Shown: positions 3,881-63,947 of the stretch, piece by piece
Position numbering within the stretch: position 1 is the stretch's first letter
How the letters are laid out: every line of letters begins with the position of its first letter
Sequence record: NC_105512.1
Direction: 5' to 3' (one strand)
DNA: 64,000 bases
From: Escherichia phage JLBYU43
Position numbers and translations under genes: made by a program
Notes under the pieces: model-generated
Told to the model about the DNA's origin: nothing
The model's input: the letters and a program-made list of their open reading frames with translations, nothing else
Databases searched by the model: none

Positions 3881-4744
3881 ATGCCGAAAAAATTAACTCA
3901 AGAAGAAGTAGATAAATGCCTAGCCGAACGTGGTTTTACTATGGTGGATAAGCCTTACCAAAATTCTAGGTATAGGCATACGTATCAGTGTGAATATGGT
4001 CATCAATGGACATCTAAATTTGATGCTATTAGGAATGGAAAGACCAATTGTCCTACTTGTTCTATTAATAGCCGTAAACTAGATATCGATAAAATTAATA
4101 CTGTATTACAGGGTAGGGGTATTACATTGTTGGAGGGCTATAAAAATAGTGCCGATATAAATACTAAATTTAGGTGTGTTTGTGGTCATGAGTGGGCTAC
4201 TACACTTAATAGTATAATTAATAGAGGTAGTGGCTGCCCCTCTTGTGCTATTAATAAACAAAAACTTAGTATTAATACTATAAACGATCGTCTTACTGCT
4301 AGGAATATTAGAATAGTAGGTGAATATAGTAATGCGAATATTAAGACCACCTTTCTCTGTGGTGCAGGGCATCAGTGGGAAGCTACTCCAGGATCCGTGT
4401 TAGGAGGAAATGGTTGTCCTTACTGTAAGTATAGGGATTTAGAAAATACTAAGGTATATATTATGCATAGCCCTTCACATGGTGTTAAAATAGGAAGGTC
4501 TAACAATCCAGAGCGCAGACTTTTACATATTAAATCTAGTAGTCACCTTACTGATCTGGAAGTAATTAAAGTATTTGAAATTGGAGAATATAGTGATGCT
4601 GTTCAAATCGAAAAATTAGCTCATAATTACTTTAAAGAACAGAATTGCCAATACAAAGATTTTGATGGTGCTACGGAATTCTTCAATATTGAGCCAGAAG
4701 TAGCTATAAAATTTATCGAGGAAATAATCAATGACAGAAAATGA
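3881..4744 (+). CDS. homing endonuclease-like protein (zinc-finger repeats plus T5orf172/GIY-YIG-like C-terminal domain)
   Basis: three Y-x-C-x-x-GH-x-W...CPxC repeats; C-terminal GVKIGRSNNPERRL...EFF; RBS GGAGAAGGGGA before ATG 3881; paralogs at 52203 and 57019. Confidence 0.6.
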   Translation: MPKKLTQEEVDKCLAERGFTMVDKPYQNSRYRHTYQCEYGHQWTSKFDAIRNGKTNCPTCSINSRKLDIDKINTVLQGRGITLLEGYKNSADINTKFRCVCGHEWATTLNSIINRGSGCPSCAINKQKLSINTINDRLTARNIRIVGEYSNANIKTTFLCGAGHQWEATPGSVLGGNGCPYCKYRDLENTKVYIMHSPSHGVKIGRSNNPERRLLHIKSSSHLTDLEVIKVFEIGEYSDAVQIEKLAHNYFKEQNCQYKDFDGATEFFNIEPEVAIKFIEEIINDRK

Positions 4745-6564: not shown

Positions 6565-6600
6565 AGCCAGGTTGCTAGTCGACCTGGCTTTTATTTTATT
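6565..6600 (+). terminator. Rho-independent terminator after nrdD
   Basis: stem AGCCAGGT/ACCTGGCT then TTTTATTTTATTT. Confidence 0.7.
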
Positions 6601-6628
6601 TGCTTTCAGCTAAAAATTTATGTATAAT
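6600..6628 (+). promoter_or_regulatory. T5-type early promoter
   Basis: TTGCTT-17-TATAAT followed by AGATTTATAAATTTAAGAGGAGGG box. Confidence 0.7.
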
Positions 6629-6655
6629 AGATTTATAAATTTAAGAGGAGGGTAT

Positions 6656-7015
6656 ATGAAATTAAAACCATTTATTGTTGTATCTAAACTAGGGCATTAT
6701 CACGTAGGAGTAGATACAATTCAGGAAGCTATTTTTGCTGCTACAGGTGATTACTCATTACTAGAAGGTATTGGGTATCCTACACTACTAGGCGACTTCG
6801 TAGAGCAAGAACTAGATATTACTGTCTATAATCCTATATATGAAGAACCTGAATACTTAAAAGAGACTCTAGAATTTGTATATTGGAACCACTTACAAGT
6901 ATTTAATGTTACCTCTAATGGCACAGAGGATTTCTCTTCTGTTATTAAATGCCATATTAAACAAGTTTACTACGATTATTTCTACGAGGATATTGGAGCG
7001 GAGCTAAAAGTATGA
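6656..7015 (+). CDS. hypothetical early protein (119 aa)
   Basis: strong RBS GAGGAGGG; start moved from track 6620. Confidence 0.6.
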   Translation: MKLKPFIVVSKLGHYHVGVDTIQEAIFAATGDYSLLEGIGYPTLLGDFVEQELDITVYNPIYEEPEYLKETLEFVYWNHLQVFNVTSNGTEDFSSVIKCHIKQVYYDYFYEDIGAELKV

Positions 7016-7215
7016 AAAACGTAAAACATCTTAAATATCGCTTAATTTACAACGGACGTATGGAAACAGAAGATCTAGCACAGCTAGCGATCAATTCAGA
7101 TGAAGTTACAGTTCGTGCTTTGTCCATTGAGAAGCTGCGTGCTTCTTACGAAAATCGTATTATGGAATTAGAGGAGAAACTTTATGGCATTCTCGAGTCA
7201 GAAGCTACCAAGTGA
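7012..7215 (+). CDS. hypothetical protein (67 aa)
   Basis: ATGA overlap with upstream stop. Confidence 0.45.
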   Translation: MKNVKHLKYRLIYNGRMETEDLAQLAINSDEVTVRALSIEKLRASYENRIMELEEKLYGILESEATK

Positions 7216-7429
7216 AAATGTTAGTCTTATTGACCTGAGTAAACTCAATGTAGAGTTTCAGGGGGTTTTAATGAAGCACTGGGAAACTGGCTATAAGGAT
7301 GGTGTTGAATCCTGTGCTACTATGCTAGAATTTATTGCTAATACCTTAGTGGAGAAAGGCAATAAAGAATTAGCTGAGCTGTTAGACAGTATTGGGCAAA
7401 ACTTCAGAGAGCAGGTGAAAAATGCGTAG
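7184..7429 (+). CDS. hypothetical protein (81 aa)
   Basis: RBS GAGGAG before ATG 7184. Confidence 0.5.
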   Translation: MAFSSQKLPSENVSLIDLSKLNVEFQGVLMKHWETGYKDGVESCATMLEFIANTLVEKGNKELAELLDSIGQNFREQVKNA

Positions 7430-8198
7430 ACTAATCATTGTTAGTGGTGCTGGTTTAAGTGTTGATAGTGGTATCCGTGCATTCCGTACAGATACTGCTA
7501 GTGGTAAAGCAATGTGGGACGAGTACGATCTAGAAGAGGTGTGTGATATTCATGCTTTTCGTGGCCAGTTCTACTGGAAAACCCACGAGTTCTACAACAA
7601 GCGTCGTCAGGAGTTGCGGACTGTTGAACCTAACATTGCGCACCTTCGTATTGGGGAATGGTTCCAGCGGTATCCAGAAGCGGTACTAAACATTACTACT
7701 AACGTAGATGACTTGCTGGAAAGAGCTGGTGTGCCGAAAAGTGAGGTTCTCCACGTTCATGGCTATTTACCGGAAGTTCGTATTAAGGAATTGCCAGACC
7801 GAAAAGAGTACATCCTAGATGTGGGCTATACTGCTATTGATCCTGATGAATTTTATTGGGCAAAGCCTAACGTTGTATTCTTTGGTGAAGCAGCCCCCGA
7901 ATATGCTCTGATGCATGCCACTTTTGATAGTCTTACAGCTAACGATATGGTTATCGTGGTTGGGTGTAGTAACCAAGTTATCAACTTCAACTGGGAACTT
8001 TTTCCTGCACTAGCTCGTGGTACTAAGATGATGGTTGTTAACCCAACTATTAACTACTTGGAACAATCCCTGTACGAAGAGCGTGGTGTTACTGTATGGC
8101 GTGCTGGGGCTGCCGAAGTTTTCGGTAACAAACACTTTATTGGCCAGGTAGAAGCTTTTATGGAAGGAACTATTTATGCCCCAGAAAAGCATGTGTGA
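7422..8198 (+). CDS. SIR2-family (sirtuin-like) NAD-binding protein lacking a zinc ribbon
   Basis: GAGLSVDSGIRAFR (GAGIS-ESGIP-FR motif), TTNVDDL (TQNID-like), VLHVHG catalytic His, PNVVFFGE; no CxxC pairs; RBS AGGTGA. Confidence 0.75.
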   Translation: MRRLIIVSGAGLSVDSGIRAFRTDTASGKAMWDEYDLEEVCDIHAFRGQFYWKTHEFYNKRRQELRTVEPNIAHLRIGEWFQRYPEAVLNITTNVDDLLERAGVPKSEVLHVHGYLPEVRIKELPDRKEYILDVGYTAIDPDEFYWAKPNVVFFGEAAPEYALMHATFDSLTANDMVIVVGCSNQVINFNWELFPALARGTKMMVVNPTINYLEQSLYEERGVTVWRAGAAEVFGNKHFIGQVEAFMEGTIYAPEKHV

Positions 8199-8215
8199 TC
8201 TTTTAGTATGGCCGG

Positions 8216-8245
8216 ACGGTAGTTGGTGCTACCGTTTCGAATTTG
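8216..8245 (+). terminator. candidate terminator after SIR2 gene
   Basis: stem ACGGTAG/CTACCGT then TTCGAATTT. Confidence 0.4.
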
Positions 8246-8338
8246 CTACCGATGACTTCTCATGGAAAAGTGATGATTTCTGCGTTATCTAAGAGGATAC
8301 AGCAGAATGGAAAGAGTTCCTTATTAAGGAGGGAGAGT

Positions 8339-8524
8339 ATGGTGAAGAAGATTTTTAAGGGTATCTGGAAGGGTCTATTATGGTTTGTCAACCTAATCGG
8401 TATGATTACCATTTATTCTCTGTTCCTATCTGTTATGTGGGGTAAAGGTGAACTGAAGGTTCCAGTTCCTTTTACTGATGAAGTTAAAGTCTGGACGTGG
8501 GATGCTACTGGTGGAAATAAGTAA
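8339..8524 (+). CDS. small membrane protein (61 aa)
   Basis: RBS AAGGAGGGAGAG before ATG 8339; hydrophobic helix LLWFVNLIGMITIYSLFLSVMW. Confidence 0.45.
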   Translation: MVKKIFKGIWKGLLWFVNLIGMITIYSLFLSVMWGKGELKVPVPFTDEVKVWTWDATGGNK

Positions 8525-8714
8525 TACTCCTGTGATTTTCCTGGATATTGATGGGGTGCTCAATTCGAGCATCTCTCACCATCATGCTCGAGATAATGAA
8601 AAGCTGTTCTTTGGCAGTGATTGGGTTTATAAGCCATTACTCCAGGCTTTTCAGAACTTCCTCAAACCTTCTCCAATAATGATTGTTGGGGTATCTTCAT
8701 GGTTTTCTGTATGA
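8502..8714 (+). CDS. HAD-like phosphatase, N-terminal part (motif I), ends at in-frame TGA
   Basis: FLDIDGVL matches HAD/NT5C motif I; start uncertain (ATG 8478/8502 or GTG 8532). Confidence 0.4.
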   Translation: MLLVEISNTPVIFLDIDGVLNSSISHHHARDNEKLFFGSDWVYKPLLQAFQNFLKPSPIMIVGVSSWFSV

Positions 8715-8720
8715 AATGAA

Positions 8721-9017
8721 ATGGAGAACGTTCAGATTATGACCGGACTCGGTTTGATCGATCGTTTTCTTGGTACAACAGATTTTACTGGAGGTGGTTT
8801 ATCTAGGGGTAATTCTGTTTTACGTTTTGTCGAAAAATATAAGCTCAAACATTGGTGTGTGCTGGATGATGCCGGTGCTATGATGTATCAGTATCCAACG
8901 GTTATAGTCAATGGTAGAACTGGGATAAATCTTCAAGATTTAAGAGCTGTTAGCTATATGTTAGAATTTAGTCCAGATCTTGAAATGTGTAAAGCCCTAC
9001 AGCAATTTAAGGTGTAA
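8721..9017 (+). CDS. HAD-like phosphatase, C-terminal part (same frame as 8502-8714)
   Basis: CVLDDAG resembles HAD motif IV; in-frame continuation six nt after TGA 8712-8714. Confidence 0.4.
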   Translation: MENVQIMTGLGLIDRFLGTTDFTGGGLSRGNSVLRFVEKYKLKHWCVLDDAGAMMYQYPTVIVNGRTGINLQDLRAVSYMLEFSPDLEMCKALQQFKV

Positions 9018-9019
9018 AT

Positions 9020-9448
9020 ATGTTTAATAATGTATTCTCTAAAGAAGCTAACCCAATTTTGGTTAACTTTTGGCGTACTCTCCCAGCTAGCCTGTATAAT
9101 GAGGCTATTAACTCTTTGAAAATATGGTGTGAGAATAACGAAATCTCCTTTGCTTTTAAAGATGATATTGATGAGGCCCCTTGTATTGGTTTAATTGTTC
9201 AGGTAGAGGAGGGTCTTGAAGAGATTGTCGGCTGGAAAGAGTTAGATGAAATGGGCTTAGTTTTTGCATTAAATTATAAGCTGTTTATGCCTGCTAAGCA
9301 TCGCCTCGTTGTTAACTATAAAACTAGTGAGTCTCCTGGTTTTCAGGTTAATGAACGTGAGGGCTGGTCATATTCGCCCGAGGAAGTAAATGAAGGGATT
9401 CAGAAACTTCGTCGTTTCGGGTATATGATCCCAGGTTTAACTGCTTAA
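9020..9448 (+). CDS. hypothetical acidic protein, paralog A (142 aa)
   Basis: shares W-x-EL-x-MGL ... PGL pattern with 9458-9853. Confidence 0.55.
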   Translation: MFNNVFSKEANPILVNFWRTLPASLYNEAINSLKIWCENNEISFAFKDDIDEAPCIGLIVQVEEGLEEIVGWKELDEMGLVFALNYKLFMPAKHRLVVNYKTSESPGFQVNEREGWSYSPEEVNEGIQKLRRFGYMIPGLTA

Positions 9449-9457
9449 GGAGGCAGA

Positions 9458-9853
9458 ATGGAACAAGTATTTTGGCGTCAGATAGATCCTAGTTTGGTAG
9501 AGCGTGCTGAGGGGCTCCTTGCACATTGGTTGGGGGTTGACAAGGTTAGTGTAACATTTCCGTTTACTTCTGTAACAGACCCTAGTGTAGGTGTATTTGT
9601 GGACGAAGATGAAGATGATGGTTGGGAAGCTGACTGGAATGAATTGTCCAGCATGGGCTTGATTGTTGCCATCAACTTCTCTATATTCCATCCACGTGGC
9701 TTAGCCATTACACGTGACCCCGAAACTGGTGAATCCCCTTATCTTTTGCAAGTAGAAGATGATATTTGGGAGTACACCGAAGATATTCTCGAAGAAGCTA
9801 AAGGTCAATTAAATCGCATTGGGATCTATGTTCCAGGCCTAAATGATGATTGA
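9458..9853 (+). CDS. hypothetical acidic protein, paralog B (131 aa)
   Basis: RBS GGAGG; paralog of 9020-9448. Confidence 0.6.
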   Translation: MEQVFWRQIDPSLVERAEGLLAHWLGVDKVSVTFPFTSVTDPSVGVFVDEDEDDGWEADWNELSSMGLIVAINFSIFHPRGLAITRDPETGESPYLLQVEDDIWEYTEDILEEAKGQLNRIGIYVPGLNDD

Positions 9854-9876: not shown

Positions 9877-9902
9877 ACCGAGTCATTTTGGCTCGGTTTT
9901 CT
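9877..9902 (+). terminator. Rho-independent terminator
   Basis: stem ACCGAG/CTCGGT then TTTTCTCTG. Confidence 0.5.
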
Positions 9903-19237: not shown

Positions 19238-20710
19238 ATGACCTTGTTTAACGTGCAAGCTGTAGTGTTGAAGATGCTTCTAGCTTCTGAACAGAAGCAA
19301 ATAGCATTGGAAACATTCTCAAAACTGCATAAAGATCATTTTAATGACGCTTTCTCCTCAATTTACCAAGCCGTCCAGAATTATTATAAAAAATATAACA
19401 CAATGCCGTCCATTGACGCACTGATGCTTGAGGCTAATAGGAACGCCCGTCTTTCTCAAGCTCTAGTCGTCTTAGCTAACACTCAAATTCCAGAAGTGAG
19501 CATGGAACAGGCACTTGAAGTCCTAGAAGCAGAATATACACAGGATTTATTCCTGAAGCTTCTAGAAACAGACGTGCTTCAAGATTTAACAATGCTGGAT
19601 CAGGGAGAAATTCTCAACCGAGTTGCCTCCCTTCACTTAAAATTAGAAGAGAAAGTAACGAATACTGGAAAAGTATTCAACGCAGATAACATGCGTATTT
19701 TCCAGAGAGAAGAAGATACCAAACTGAACTTAATCGCTCTTGGTATTTGTAATGAGTTCGACGCTCAAATTGGTTTAGCTCGCACAGAAACGTTACTGCT
19801 TGGTGGTTGGCGTGGTACTGGTAAATCCATTATCTGTTCAAACATACAGGTTCAGCAATATTTGAATGGAGATATTGCTCCATACTTCTCAATTGAGATG
19901 AAAGAACATGAAGTATTTAGACGTAATCTAGCCATGTTAGCTGGTGTATCAGCATTAGCAATGCGTAATAACACTCTTGAAGGTGCTGCTCTGTTGAGAT
20001 TAGCCAGAACTAGGGCTAGGATGTTTAATGGTGGTGAAGAGCTTTTCGATAACTTCGTTAAGCAATACACTATGGCTAAAATGAGTGACTTCTATGATAT
20101 GGAAAGTAAACTCCTTGAAGGCTATGAGCTTCACACTCCTATGATCATCGTTTACGATCCTGAACTGTCTATTACGACTGTTGACGTAGAATTAAATAAA
20201 CTAGTTGCTAAATATGGTGATAAGGTTACTGTAGCTCTTCTAGACTATATTAACCAAACAAGACTTCCAGATTCAAAGACCATTGACATGTATGACTGGA
20301 AAGAACAGATGGTCGTTAGTTCATCTTTCAAATCTATCTGCCAGAAACATAACGTGGCTGGTGTAGCTCCTTACCAGATCGATCAAGATGGTAGAACACG
20401 TATGTCAAAGGGGATTCTTGATTCCGCAGACATGGCTGCTAATCTTAATGCTGCAAAAGCTGATAATGGTCAAGGTGCTATTATGTTTGACTTCGTTAAG
20501 ACTCGTTCTTCTGATAGCGTGAAGTTTATGCCTAAAATGAACTGGGAAACTCTGCGAATGGATAACACTACCAACCTAGCAATGGAAGATATATCTCAAA
20601 TGGAAGCTGAGTTCGTTATCCCTATTGAGAAGGATAAGCCGGCTCAACCTAAACGTGCTAAGAAAGACAAAACTGAAAATTCAACAGGTGAACAGGCCAG
20701 CGATATATGA
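19238..20710 (+). CDS. RecA-fold replicative helicase (DnaB-like)
   Basis: Walker A GWRGTGKS; RBS AAAGGAGA; start moved from 19187. Confidence 0.6.
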   Translation: MTLFNVQAVVLKMLLASEQKQIALETFSKLHKDHFNDAFSSIYQAVQNYYKKYNTMPSIDALMLEANRNARLSQALVVLANTQIPEVSMEQALEVLEAEYTQDLFLKLLETDVLQDLTMLDQGEILNRVASLHLKLEEKVTNTGKVFNADNMRIFQREEDTKLNLIALGICNEFDAQIGLARTETLLLGGWRGTGKSIICSNIQVQQYLNGDIAPYFSIEMKEHEVFRRNLAMLAGVSALAMRNNTLEGAALLRLARTRARMFNGGEELFDNFVKQYTMAKMSDFYDMESKLLEGYELHTPMIIVYDPELSITTVDVELNKLVAKYGDKVTVALLDYINQTRLPDSKTIDMYDWKEQMVVSSSFKSICQKHNVAGVAPYQIDQDGRTRMSKGILDSADMAANLNAAKADNGQGAIMFDFVKTRSSDSVKFMPKMNWETLRMDNTTNLAMEDISQMEAEFVIPIEKDKPAQPKRAKKDKTENSTGEQASDI

Positions 20711-21240
20711 TAACACAGGAAAGGCTAAAAGAGTTATTTGATTACTCCCCAGAAACTGGGGAGTTTACTAGAAAAGTATCTAGAGGCAATCAGAAAGCTG
20801 GGAGTATAGTAAATAGAAAAGACTCTAATGGCTATATAATTATTGGCATAGATGGCAAGGATTACAAAGCTCATCGTATGGCTTTTCTATTTATGGAGAA
20901 TACACTGCCTGAAAAAGTAGACCATGTAAACAGAATACCATTCGATAACAGATGGTGTAATCTAAGAGATGCCACAGCCCAGGAAAATAGTAGAAATAAA
21001 ACAGCATGTAGTAAATCTGGATACTTAGGAGTTGCTTGGGATAAGAAAAATCAAAAATGGGAAGTTAGAGTCAGGGATTATTTAGGAAATAAAAAATATT
21101 TCGGAAGATTTAACTATCTGGATTTACAATCAGCTGTTGAGATAGCTAATAAGGCCAGACTACAGTTACACGGAGAACGTGCTGTTATAGAGATTTTTGA
21201 TATATATAATTATCCTGCACTAGAGGAGCTAAACTCATGA
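20707..21240 (+). CDS. HNH homing endonuclease with AP2-like domain
   Basis: HRMAF...VDHVNR...NRWCNL; paralogs at 31086, 62111, 63411. Confidence 0.75.
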   Translation: MITQERLKELFDYSPETGEFTRKVSRGNQKAGSIVNRKDSNGYIIIGIDGKDYKAHRMAFLFMENTLPEKVDHVNRIPFDNRWCNLRDATAQENSRNKTACSKSGYLGVAWDKKNQKWEVRVRDYLGNKKYFGRFNYLDLQSAVEIANKARLQLHGERAVIEIFDIYNYPALEELNS

Positions 21241-52202: not shown

Positions 52203-52802
52203 CTAACTAAACATATAGTCATAAACTATTTCTTTTATATCTGGTAAATATTTTTCTAAACAAGTCTCAGTATACCCATCAGGTAGTAAAGCAGGTGTAA
52301 GAAAGGATGAAGGGATTATTTCCTTTACTATATTTTCTATATCTAGAGCGTACTCCTTACTATATAATTCTATAGCAAAGATTATGTTATGAGTATACTT
52401 TGAATTCTTAGACTGTTCTGAAAGTCTCTTTTCTACACTTCTAGTAGTAATCCCATACTTTAAGGCTGAGTGTGAAGTACAACTTAATTTTTGTAAATAA
52501 AAGTAAGTGGGAGTAGAGTTAGTATTTATATTCTTACAATTAGTATTTAATAAGCATCTATTTTGAAAGCATTTCGGGCATCTAGATCCATTAGTAATAA
52601 AATTACGAATACTAGGAGTCCATACATTTCCATCAATGTTACATTTAAGTTGTATTTTAGACTCTGCATTTTTAAAAGTATATACTAGTCCTTCATAAGT
52701 ATAATTCTCTTTAGTGCATATATCTAAAATCTGAGATTCTCTAATCTCGTACGGAATTGCTTTTCCAGACATTAGTGTTATATCCTTAATGTTAGTATAC
52801 AA
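52203..52802 (-). CDS. homing endonuclease-like protein (T5orf172-like) inserted between capsid and adaptor genes
   Basis: CPKC zinc motif, LKYGITTRSVEKRLSEQ; track start is TTG 52802, ATG 52772 with RBS AAGGA is the alternative. Confidence 0.5.
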   Translation of the reverse strand: MYTNIKDITLMSGKAIPYEIRESQILDICTKENYTYEGLVYTFKNAESKIQLKCNIDGNVWTPSIRNFITNGSRCPKCFQNRCLLNTNCKNINTNSTPTYFYLQKLSCTSHSALKYGITTRSVEKRLSEQSKNSKYTHNIIFAIELYSKEYALDIENIVKEIIPSSFLTPALLPDGYTETCLEKYLPDIKEIVYDYMFS

Positions 52803-54889: not shown

Positions 54890-55378
54890 TTAGCCTCCAA
54901 CACCAGGTGCAGTTGGGGTAGCTTTTACTGCTGCAGACTTAGTAGATTCTCCCGCCCCATTAACAGCTACTGCCTGGAAAGTATACTCTTTTGCTTCTAG
55001 GGTAGAAATAGTACCTGTTTTAGAAGACCCAGAATTATGGGTTTTTGGAGTAGTTCCATCAGTATAGTATACTTTATACTGGGTGATTGGTGAGCCGGTA
55101 TTAGTACCATCAGTAATTGTATAAGTTACTGAGTTTTCACCCGGAGTTACCTGCAACGTAGGGGCTCCAGGGACAACGTCTACTGGACCAGCCTTACCAT
55201 AAGCCTCTACAAATTTCTTCCATACTTTGCGGTTAGTATGCGCAGATGAAAGTCCCAATTCTCTACGCAGAAAAGCATAGCTAGGAACATATTTATGCGC
55301 AGCAACCGTAGCAAAGAAGATATGAGATTCTGGCAGTTTTTCACCAAAAATGGTCTTTAGACCACTATAATCAATCAT
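54890..55378 (-). CDS. head decoration protein (pb10-like)
   Basis: C-terminal Ig/FN3-like Thr/Gly-rich domain. Confidence 0.55.
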   Translation of the reverse strand: MIDYSGLKTIFGEKLPESHIFFATVAAHKYVPSYAFLRRELGLSSAHTNRKVWKKFVEAYGKAGPVDVVPGAPTLQVTPGENSVTYTITDGTNTGSPITQYKVYYTDGTTPKTHNSGSSKTGTISTLEAKEYTFQAVAVNGAGESTKSAAVKATPTAPGVGG

Positions 55379-56592: not shown

Positions 56593-57029
56593 TATAAGAA
56601 CCTTGCGAATCCTGATTTTGTTTCAGTCTTGACTTGTGTCTTTTCTTGAGGATTCTGTAATTTGTCTTTCTGCTTTTGAACCCACACTTTTTGCTTATTA
56701 GCAGAAAATAAAGGAGGTTCTTTTGTGTAAACCTTATGTAATAATTGGTGATGATGCTGGCATAATGTTACTACGTCTCTAACTAATTCATGCTCATATT
56801 TCTTATAGAATGCTTCCCTATTTGAAAGGACGATATTCTCATCAGTGAAATCCAGCTGGAGTTCTTTAGCAAAATTTTTAATTAGTTGAGATATAGTATG
56901 ATAGTGATGAAGTTCTAGGGCTTCATCACTACCGCATATAGCACAGCAACCATCCTTACTATACCTAGATTTTATACCATCCCTCATTATGGAAATGGCA
57001 TCACGTTTGTACTTAGTATTAGTGGCCAT
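56592..57029 (-). CDS. HNH endonuclease
   Basis: CAICGS...LELHHYH...CQHHHQLLH; ATG 57029 with RBS GGAGG. Confidence 0.7.
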   Translation of the reverse strand: MATNTKYKRDAISIMRDGIKSRYSKDGCCAICGSDEALELHHYHTISQLIKNFAKELQLDFTDENIVLSNREAFYKKYEHELVRDVVTLCQHHHQLLHKVYTKEPPLFSANKQKVWVQKQKDKLQNPQEKTQVKTETKSGFARFL

Positions 57030-57693
57030 ATTCCTCCAATCCAAAGTTACTTAGAAAGACTACTATATCCTCTGGAGCAACATTAAAAAATTCTGTGCTT
57101 CCTGTAAATTTTGAAAACCCACAGTTTTTATTATAATATTCTCTATGGACTTCTTTTTCTAAATCTAGAGCAGTTTCTCTATCAGGTAAGTGATACGTGG
57201 TAAATAAGTATAGATCTGAAAATCCAGACTCTCTTTTAACCTCGTTCAATCGCTTCTCGGGGTATAAACTTATACCTACTTTAGTACCCATAGAAGAGGA
57301 CATGATATAGAGAAATCCACCATTATCCCATTTAAGGGAGCAATAAGGACATCTTCTACCTTGCGTCAACCCATCTAAGGTAATATAGCATTCATGACCA
57401 TTATTACAGCGTAGATGTAGTTTTGTTTTTGCATTAGTATAGTTATTTAACAGTGTATACCCTATACTGGATATCCTGTTATTAACTTCATCTAGCAATA
57501 TAGTATTAGGTGCGCAGTGTGGGCAACCCCTCTTAATATGGAGTATAGAATGTGGCGTTGCTTCCCAAACGTGTGCTCTTTGGCACTTAAATACTGTTTT
57601 TGTACGTTGGTTTACATATTCACCGACAATTTGGATTCCACGATCAGCTAATCTAGTATTTATATCTTTTATTGTTAGCTTTTGTCGACCCAT
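57019..57693 (-). CDS. homing endonuclease-like protein (zinc-finger repeats + T5orf172-like domain)
   Basis: CPHC/CPYC motifs, C-terminal GTKVGISLYPEKRL...EFFNV; paralog of 3881-4744. Confidence 0.6.
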   Translation of the reverse strand: MGRQKLTIKDINTRLADRGIQIVGEYVNQRTKTVFKCQRAHVWEATPHSILHIKRGCPHCAPNTILLDEVNNRISSIGYTLLNNYTNAKTKLHLRCNNGHECYITLDGLTQGRRCPYCSLKWDNGGFLYIMSSSMGTKVGISLYPEKRLNEVKRESGFSDLYLFTTYHLPDRETALDLEKEVHREYYNKNCGFSKFTGSTEFFNVAPEDIVVFLSNFGLEEYGH

Positions 57694-62110: not shown

Positions 62111-62650
62111 ATGTCAGACGATAATAGAAGAAGGCAAGAGGAATTAAAAAGACTCTATGACTATAATCCAGAGACGGGAATTTTTATCCAGAAAACTACA
62201 CGTGGAGGTAAAATAGCAGGTAGTATTGCTGGATCACTCCACTCTAGTGGGTATATACATATAAGGTTTGAGGGCAAGCCTCAGAAAGCACATAGATTAG
62301 CCTTCCTATTTATGGAAGGATATATCCCAGAAGAAGTTGATCATATAAATAGAGTACGTAATGATAATAGATGGACTAACTTAAAAGAATCCTCCAGGTC
62401 TGAAAACAATAGTAATGTAAAACGTAAAAACAAATCTGGATATTCAGGAGTTCACTGGAATAAGAGAGATTTAGGATGGCAAGTCACCATTAGGAAAAAG
62501 GGAATTAGTTATTCAAATGGATTTTTTGAATACTCTGAACTACCACAAGCGGTTGAAGCTGCTAATAAACTTAGGTTAGATTTATATGGCAAATCAGCTC
62601 TGATAGAAGAATTCGACGGAAAGTTACCAAGTATTGAGGATTTAGTATGA
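62111..62650 (+). CDS. HNH homing endonuclease with AP2-like domain
   Basis: ATG 62111 with RBS AGGAGAA; VDHINR...NRWTNL. Confidence 0.7.
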   Translation: MSDDNRRRQEELKRLYDYNPETGIFIQKTTRGGKIAGSIAGSLHSSGYIHIRFEGKPQKAHRLAFLFMEGYIPEEVDHINRVRNDNRWTNLKESSRSENNSNVKRKNKSGYSGVHWNKRDLGWQVTIRKKGISYSNGFFEYSELPQAVEAANKLRLDLYGKSALIEEFDGKLPSIEDLV

Positions 62651-63421: not shown

Positions 63422-63947
63422 CTTAAGTATACAGGACATAGAAGAAGCATTTGCTTATGATCCCGAAACTGGAGTTTTCACCTGGAAAAGCGGCAATCGT
63501 AAGGATAAAGAAGCAGGTACTTTAAATAGGGGGTATAGGCAGCTTAAATATCGAGGATTTAAAGCTTATGCACATCAAGTAGCTTTTGTTATTATGGAAA
63601 ATAGGTGGCCAGAGGAATGTGTAGACCATATAGATAGGAATAAGCTAAATAATAGGTGGTCAAATCTGCGAGAAGCTACAATTACGGAAAATAATCGTAA
63701 CGGTAGAACCTCAAAAACATCCTCAGGCTACCTAAATGTTACGTGGCATAAGGGACTTCAGAAATGGATGGTAAGATTACATGATAAGCATGGACTTATA
63801 AATGGTACTACTAAGTATTTTTCCTATGACAGATTGGAAGACGCAGTAAATTATGCGAATTTACTAAGAAAGAAATTTCATGGCAGCTTTGCAGTACAAG
63901 AGGCATTCAAAGGGAATATACCAGATGTTGTTCAGTTAAACAGTTAA
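63411..63947 (+). CDS. HNH homing endonuclease with AP2-like domain
   Basis: RBS AAAGGTGAG; VDHIDRNKLNNRWSNL; C-terminal half similar to 20707-21240. Confidence 0.7.
   Translation: MKNNLSIQDIEEAFAYDPETGVFTWKSGNRKDKEAGTLNRGYRQLKYRGFKAYAHQVAFVIMENRWPEECVDHIDRNKLNNRWSNLREATITENNRNGRTSKTSSGYLNVTWHKGLQKWMVRLHDKHGLINGTTKYFSYDRLEDAVNYANLLRKKFHGSFAVQEAFKGNIPDVVQLNS

Follow-up and report, generated by a model that had tools for sequence, protein, structure and literature searches.

Introduction

Enzymes of the HAD superfamily that have no cap domain usually act on macromolecular substrates, an association that reportedly goes back to the HAD classification made by Burroughs and co-workers in 2006. 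One Pfam family, HAD_SAK_2 (PF18143), is described as the "HAD domain in Swiss Army Knife RNA repair proteins". In T5-like phages, T5.105 and its Tequintavirus and Epseptimavirus homologues occupy a shared gene order, in which a Sir2-like gene is followed by two small ORFs, the HAD gene, and two DUF7415 genes. When a premature stop codon interrupts a gene, translation can restart downstream, with T4 rIIB and lacI as the classical examples. In enterobacteria, UGA leaks more than any other stop codon, and substitution errors in deep consensus sequences are rare relative to homopolymer indels.

Escherichia phage JLBYU43 is a T5-like phage (Demerecviridae, Markadamsvirinae). We analyzed a stretch of 64,000 nucleotides from its sequence record (NC_105512.1), called the window below. 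A first-pass annotation of this stretch, made from the letters alone, had pointed to a HAD-like phosphatase reading frame interrupted by an in-frame TGA, and had listed a pseudogene, a sequencing error, UGA read-through, and two genuinely separate genes as possible explanations. The 1.1-kb stretch around the HAD gene is matched by 437 related phage records. The gene order of the T5.105 homologues is shared by JLBYU43, but its copy of the HAD gene is broken by TGA at codon 68.

Results

The interrupted HAD_SAK_2 gene

The two ORFs lie in the same frame, as first described: one, at 8478-8714, is closed by the TGA at 8712-8714, and the other, at 8721-9017, begins six nucleotides further on. The motifs noticed earlier are also where they had been placed, FLDIDGVL in the first ORF and CVLDDAG (ca. 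8856-8876) in the second. Both ORFs and their joined translation were compared with the HAD_SAK_2 profile, whose curated gathering cut-off is 27.5 bits. The first ORF matched profile positions 1-54 (E = 1.9e-8, 35.2 bits), and the second matched positions 70-138 with a score under the cut-off (E = 1.3e-4, 22.8 bits), while the joined translation spanned positions 1-138 of 139 (E = 5e-18, 66.3 bits). Judged by sequence, the side-by-side ORFs are halves of one domain and not a chance juxtaposition. The joined score, together with the single CDS present in relatives, bears out the earlier reading of one small HAD-type phosphatase gene with an in-frame TGA. The nucleotidase-like (NT5C) label attached to that reading has to be dropped: a Pfam scan at E <= 1 returned HAD_SAK_2 and no NT5C family, the only other match being a spurious one to rOmpB.

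Across 18 family members, with identities as low as 36%, no variation is seen in motif I (FLDIDGVLN, window 8538-8564), motif II (SSWF), GG..RG, or the DD of motif IV. The reading frame as a whole holds all HAD motifs, including S62/S63, R99 in GGGLSRG, and D119-D120. Of these, motifs I and II precede the TGA at 8712 and motifs III and IV follow it, and the encoded product is an incomplete HAD domain. A motif set complete within one ORF, the arrangement that the first-pass annotation had named as speaking against a single interrupted gene, is found in neither half.

A Rossmann-like alpha/beta core is present, as seen in an AlphaFold model of the intact homologue P0002 (pLDDT 94.6). In this model, the loop that holds codon 68 (residues 61-69) connects the motif-II strand (57-60) to helix 70-79. 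Distant homologues carry insertions near this loop, and at residue 68 they have S, K, G, or other amino acids. A search of solved structures by sequence gave no match to the HAD protein. We conclude that the protein is a minimal, stand-alone, capless HAD-superfamily phosphatase of the HAD_SAK_2 family. At the level of a prediction from the name, the family designation suggests a polynucleotide-end (RNA or DNA) phosphatase. No ligase or kinase partner adjoins the HAD gene, the neighbors being the Sir2-like gene, the DUF7415 genes, and small ORFs. When the ORFs next to distant homologues (L033-L038) were judged by eye, none resembled Sir2 or an RNA ligase.

Gene start, protein length, and surroundings

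The features of the locus are collected in Table 1. The ATG at 8478, given earlier as the beginning of the first ORF, does not hold as the gene start: it is only the longest mechanical start, and homology to T5-type relatives begins at 8512. Upstream of this point the sequence of these relatives is unrelated, and their ATG, which follows AAGGGA, aligns with GTG 8511 of the window. GTG 8511 is therefore the probable start, with ATG 8502 and ATG 8478 as in-frame alternatives. In relatives, a single CDS of 168-171 aa is annotated from the equivalent of 8502 or 8511 to 9017. Because these starts match 8511 or 8502, the intact protein is 168-171 aa long, and when the protein is numbered from 8511, the stop is codon 68.

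The ATG at 8721, with which the second ORF begins, corresponds to a Met codon inside the gene of intact relatives. Another such ATG (8739) sits 12 nt past a GGAG at 8723-8726, and is chosen as the start by gene callers in SP01 and PHROG 18062. A 153-aa protein of SE3 and a 92-aa protein of SP01 were considered as truncations and rejected: in both phages the ORF is intact, and the shortness of the product reflects a choice made in annotation.

The HAD gene belongs to an early-gene cluster with a terminator-like hairpin at either end (6565-6589 and 9877-9897). The gene order runs from the Sir2-like gene through two small ORFs, the HAD gene, and the two DUF7415 genes to a gene for a replication-origin-binding protein. 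The DUF7415 paralogues are ca. 30% identical to one another.

Table 1. Features of the HAD_SAK_2 locus of JLBYU43 and of related frameshift alleles (window coordinates unless another sequence is named)
Feature	Position	Strand	Remarks
Sir2-like gene	7422..8198	+	PHROG 2162, E = 1.6e-105; two small ORFs upstream of HAD gene, same direction
61-aa gene overlapping HAD gene start	8339..8524	+	PHROG 11166; annotated in relatives
HAD_SAK_2 gene 5' fragment (T5.105 homologue)	8511..8714	+	67 aa, motifs I and II, up to premature TGA; start probable
HAD motif I FLDIDGVL	8538..8561	+	D12 nucleophile, D14 acid/base of DxD signature
Private change in codon 27, CCA (Pro) to CGA (Arg)	8589..8591	+	Pro in 31/31 distinct relative sequences
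HAD motif II region S62-S63-W64	8694..8702	+	End of second core strand; SSWF invariant
Premature opal TGA, codon 68	8712..8714	+	From CGA (Arg), C-to-T transition at 8712
HAD_SAK_2 gene 3' fragment	8721..9017	+	98 aa from ATG 8721
GGGLSRG motif, in 3' fragment	8790-8810	+	
Motif IV VLDDAG, in 3' fragment	8859-8876	+	
Two tandem DUF7415 paralogues	9020-9448 and 9458-9853	+	Directly downstream of HAD gene
Frameshift ORFs of PMBT26 and misterkot	L043 and L044, 265-630		

A single nonsense change found only in JLBYU43

Codon 68 is a sense codon in all 33 relatives that could be aligned across it, and no indel occurs there. Among distinct relative sequences it is AGG (n=16), AGA (n=8), CGA (n=7), or AAA (n=1); the residue is thus Arg in 31 sequences and Lys in one. 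The whole ORF is open in ca. 30 of the 33 relatives. These counts refute the proposal of two genuinely separate genes, and homologues with the same two-gene boundary, which the first-pass annotation had suggested looking for, do not occur among them: in intact relatives the gene is one CDS.

A 41-mer centered on T8712, in which any 28-base megablast seed must include that base, was searched against 50,697 phage records. With T at 8712 there were no matches, whereas with C at the same position 98 records matched at >= 99% identity. Searches for the TGA allele by exact pattern in IMG/VR, GTDB genomes, and JGI metagenomes found none. Thus, the interruption is a single CGA-to-TGA transition, unique to the JLBYU43 genome. 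UGA read-through as a designed feature accordingly finds no support, the stop being found in JLBYU43 only, and recoding at a conserved site is excluded.

Three codon changes in the gene are private to the window: P27R, one synonymous change, and R68*; there are no indels. P27R is the sole private non-synonymous change besides the stop, and two non-synonymous changes against one synonymous are too few to show relaxed selection. The joined protein is 87-92% identical to the closest intact proteins (168-184 aa), and its named homologues include those of TrudiGerster (88%) and phiR2-01 (74%). A gene with a single disabling change, three private changes in all, and no indels is not a long-decayed pseudogene. 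The earlier suggestion of a pseudogene therefore stands in part: a very recent nonsense allele is possible, and long-term decay is not what the gene looks like.

State of the rest of the window

To place the stop in context, 69 annotated SP01 proteins were compared with the window by tblastn, and ca. 60 had a close counterpart. None of these counterparts contains a mid-gene stop or a frameshift, so that no gene other than the HAD gene was seen to be broken in this comparison of ca. 60. We conclude that the assembly is clean, which argues against a sloppy consensus and leaves room for a single wrong base. Taken with the two other private changes in the HAD gene, the intactness of ca. 60 other genes indicates that the event is either very recent or an error. 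None of the other long ORFs in the window is interrupted by TGA.

Two candidates for a second broken gene were rejected. The endonuclease gene at 57004-57693 ends six codons before that of SP01 (CAA to TAA), and its product is merely 6 aa shorter at the C terminus. A tail protein has a C-terminal domain that is divergent yet open.

Several other features of the window were noted in the course of the comparison. The endonuclease gene at 57004-57693 (- strand) is one of a set of paralogous genes of the homing-endonuclease type, the others lying on the + strand at 3881-4741, 20707-21237, 62135-62644, and 63423-63944. A 199-aa ORF with CxxC motifs (52203-52802, - strand) lies between the genes for the major head protein and the head-tail adaptor. 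The corresponding gap in SP01 is just 60 nt long, and the ORF probably represents an insertion of a homing-endonuclease-like gene. In the tail or head-associated protein encoded at 54890-55378 (- strand), the N-terminal 76 aa match SP01 gp023, while the C-terminal half is unrelated to it, Thr/Gly-rich, and Ig/FN3-like, which suggests a domain swap. A mosaic region on the + strand comprises 6620-7015, a 131-aa ORF without an SP01 counterpart, and 7422-8198, the Sir2-like gene, whose product shares only 61% identity with its SP01 counterpart, against 91-99% for flanking genes.

Broken alleles in related phages

Counting that of JLBYU43, there are four independent broken alleles of the HAD gene. 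In Salmonella phage SP_Thor (L039 1501-1854), a TGG codon just before motif IV is changed to amber TAG, with a 117-aa product. Salmonella phages misterkot and PMBT26 have a common +1 frameshift, A5 to A6, at the equivalent of window position ca. 8833; their product ends in ...VEKI* and has lost motif IV. The two were deposited as separate isolates, PMBT26 coming from German sewage, and a frameshift common to two independently deposited isolates is real and not a sequencing artefact. In Shigella phage SHSML-45, a deletion of ca. 1.4 kb between CA(C)TGG microhomologies, corresponding to window ca. 7281-8700, begins upstream of the Sir2-like gene and takes out this gene, both small ORFs that follow it, and the HAD gene's N half. 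What is left (L031 1429-1818) is a 129-aa in-frame fusion of the first 25 aa of the upstream gene, the homologue of window ORF 7184-7429, to the HAD C half. Since null alleles recur in viable isolated phages, a functional HAD copy is dispensable in relatives of JLBYU43.

Discussion

We consider it likely that, in JLBYU43, an accessory gene which T5-like phages can do without has very recently acquired a nonsense mutation. A C-to-T change at 8712 would have converted Arg codon 68 from CGA to opal TGA, and translation from GTG 8511 (or ATG 8502) would stop after 67-70 residues. The truncated product would keep motifs I and II, and would be without GGGxxRG and the Mg-binding DD of motif IV; judging by this motif content, the enzyme would be inactive or almost so. 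Translation may restart at ATG 8721, 6 nt past the stop, or initiate at ATG 8739 behind GGAG, yielding a C fragment of 92-98 aa that would have no nucleophile. With motifs I and II only in the N fragment and motifs III and IV only in the C fragment, neither would be expected to be a phosphatase alone. Near-cognate reading of UGA by host tRNA-Trp may also produce a small fraction of full-length R68W protein, and since distant members of the family do not conserve position 68, this protein could be active. JLBYU43 would tolerate the stop because the gene provides an accessory function that T5-like phages can lose. The premature stop could also exert polarity on the downstream DUF7415 genes (9020..9853).

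The other explanations have to be weighed against this one. The T at 8712 may be a sequencing, assembly, or consensus error, or a minority variant that entered the consensus, in which case the true phage has CGA and an intact gene. The change is one base, the T allele is absent from all collections searched beyond JLBYU43, and the remainder of the HAD gene shows no decay, as such an error would predict. We nevertheless consider an error unlikely: the absence of another broken gene among the ca. 60 compared in the 64-kb window shows that the assembly is not error-prone, the site is outside any homopolymer, and real null alleles circulate, for example the frameshift in the separately deposited misterkot and PMBT26. 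That the TGA is instead a boundary between two separate genes is almost certainly wrong. GenBank does have two CDS for JLBYU43, but all relatives aligned across the boundary have one ORF, the intact ones are annotated as one CDS, and the full HAD motif set is found in neither half.

Two further proposals would rescue a working enzyme. A C fragment restarted at ATG 8721 or 8739 might pair non-covalently with the N fragment to rebuild an active HAD fold. Such a split enzyme would fit with a stop that lies in a surface loop bearing insertions in distant homologues, with an in-frame ATG 6 nt on and a GGAG ahead of ATG 8739, and with the internal start that gene callers independently choose in SP01. 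The arrangement is, however, found in no relative, ATG 8721 has no Shine-Dalgarno sequence, the break would part strands of one central beta-sheet, and synonymous conservation near the internal ATGs is no lower than in the remainder of the gene; we regard this proposal as very improbable. An embedded internal-start element was rejected on the same conservation data: synonymous diversity at codons 70-78 is 0.058 versus a mean of 0.20, but codons 13-21 show an equal dip, and Met accounts for two of the nine codons from 70 to 78. Programmed recoding of the UGA, by a suppressor tRNA or as selenocysteine, would yield full-length protein by design, and it draws on the leakiness of UGA in enterobacteria and on a possible hairpin at 8723-8770 (-19.8 kcal/mol, z = -2.6). 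Against it, the stop is conserved in no relative, homologues have Arg, Lys, Ser, or Gly at codon 68 and never Cys, and the other long ORFs of the window are free of TGA interruptions. The hairpin sequence is also found in all relatives with sense codons; 11 of its 20 pairs are invariant, and most changes break pairs. Because its sequence is kept in relatives and yet shows no covariation, this hairpin within the HAD coding sequence is probably incidental, and there is no Rfam match in 8300-9200. No tRNA genes were found in the 64-kb window, the tRNA region of JLBYU43 itself being outside it, and neither an opal suppressor nor a tRNA-Trp is among the 22 tRNAs of the relative SP01. We regard recoding as more improbable still than a split enzyme.

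Returning to a recent nonsense allele, the repeated inactivation of the HAD gene in the T5 group may reflect neutral loss; host-driven selection is another explanation, of low probability. A selected loss on some hosts, with the JLBYU43 allele as an escape mutation, strikes us as decidedly doubtful; under such a reading, a bacterial defence system, for example, might sense the HAD protein or a Sir2-HAD module.

In the deposited record, the 78-aa and 98-aa products of JLBYU43 each bear the name "putative RNA repair protein", and these two CDS should become one disrupted gene. The finding matters little beyond annotation. It concerns either a commonplace loss-of-function allele or an error in base calling, and not recoding. 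That a conserved accessory gene of the T5 group can be lost is useful for phage engineering or for function hunting. Separately, the HAD gene and its 92-aa C-terminal fragment (PHROG 18062; in RefSeq, for example, NC_017969 orf108) are widely labelled "Sir2 (NAD-dependent deacetylase)". The label is wrong; it appears to have been taken over from the genuine Sir2-like gene close by and then propagated as an annotation error.

A literature search on HAD_SAK_2, T5.105, and JLBYU43 found no relevant paper, and none on an RNA-repair activity in this phage clade. The joined JLBYU43 translation covers nearly all of the PF18143 profile, but unlike the "Swiss Army Knife" repair proteins, in which the domain is part of a multidomain protein, the JLBYU43 HAD is a stand-alone domain. 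With capless (C0) HAD phosphatases such as MDP-1 (1u7o/2wm8), it shares the Rossmann-like core and the DxD, S/T, basic, and DD motifs, although sequence identity to these enzymes is only 13-18%. The CTD phosphatases Scp1/FCP1, also capless HAD enzymes, are more distant than MDP-1, as are the phosphatase domains of T4 Pnkp and mammalian PNKP, which were among the Foldseek matches. In place of the usual Lys of motif III, the HAD_SAK_2 protein appears to use the Arg within GGGxxRG. With respect to its stop codon, JLBYU43 may be likened to the restart phenomena of T4 rIIB and lacI, in that an in-frame ATG follows the premature stop within a few nucleotides. With respect to its fate, the HAD gene resembles other accessory phage genes with null alleles, being dispensable and independently inactivated in relatives.
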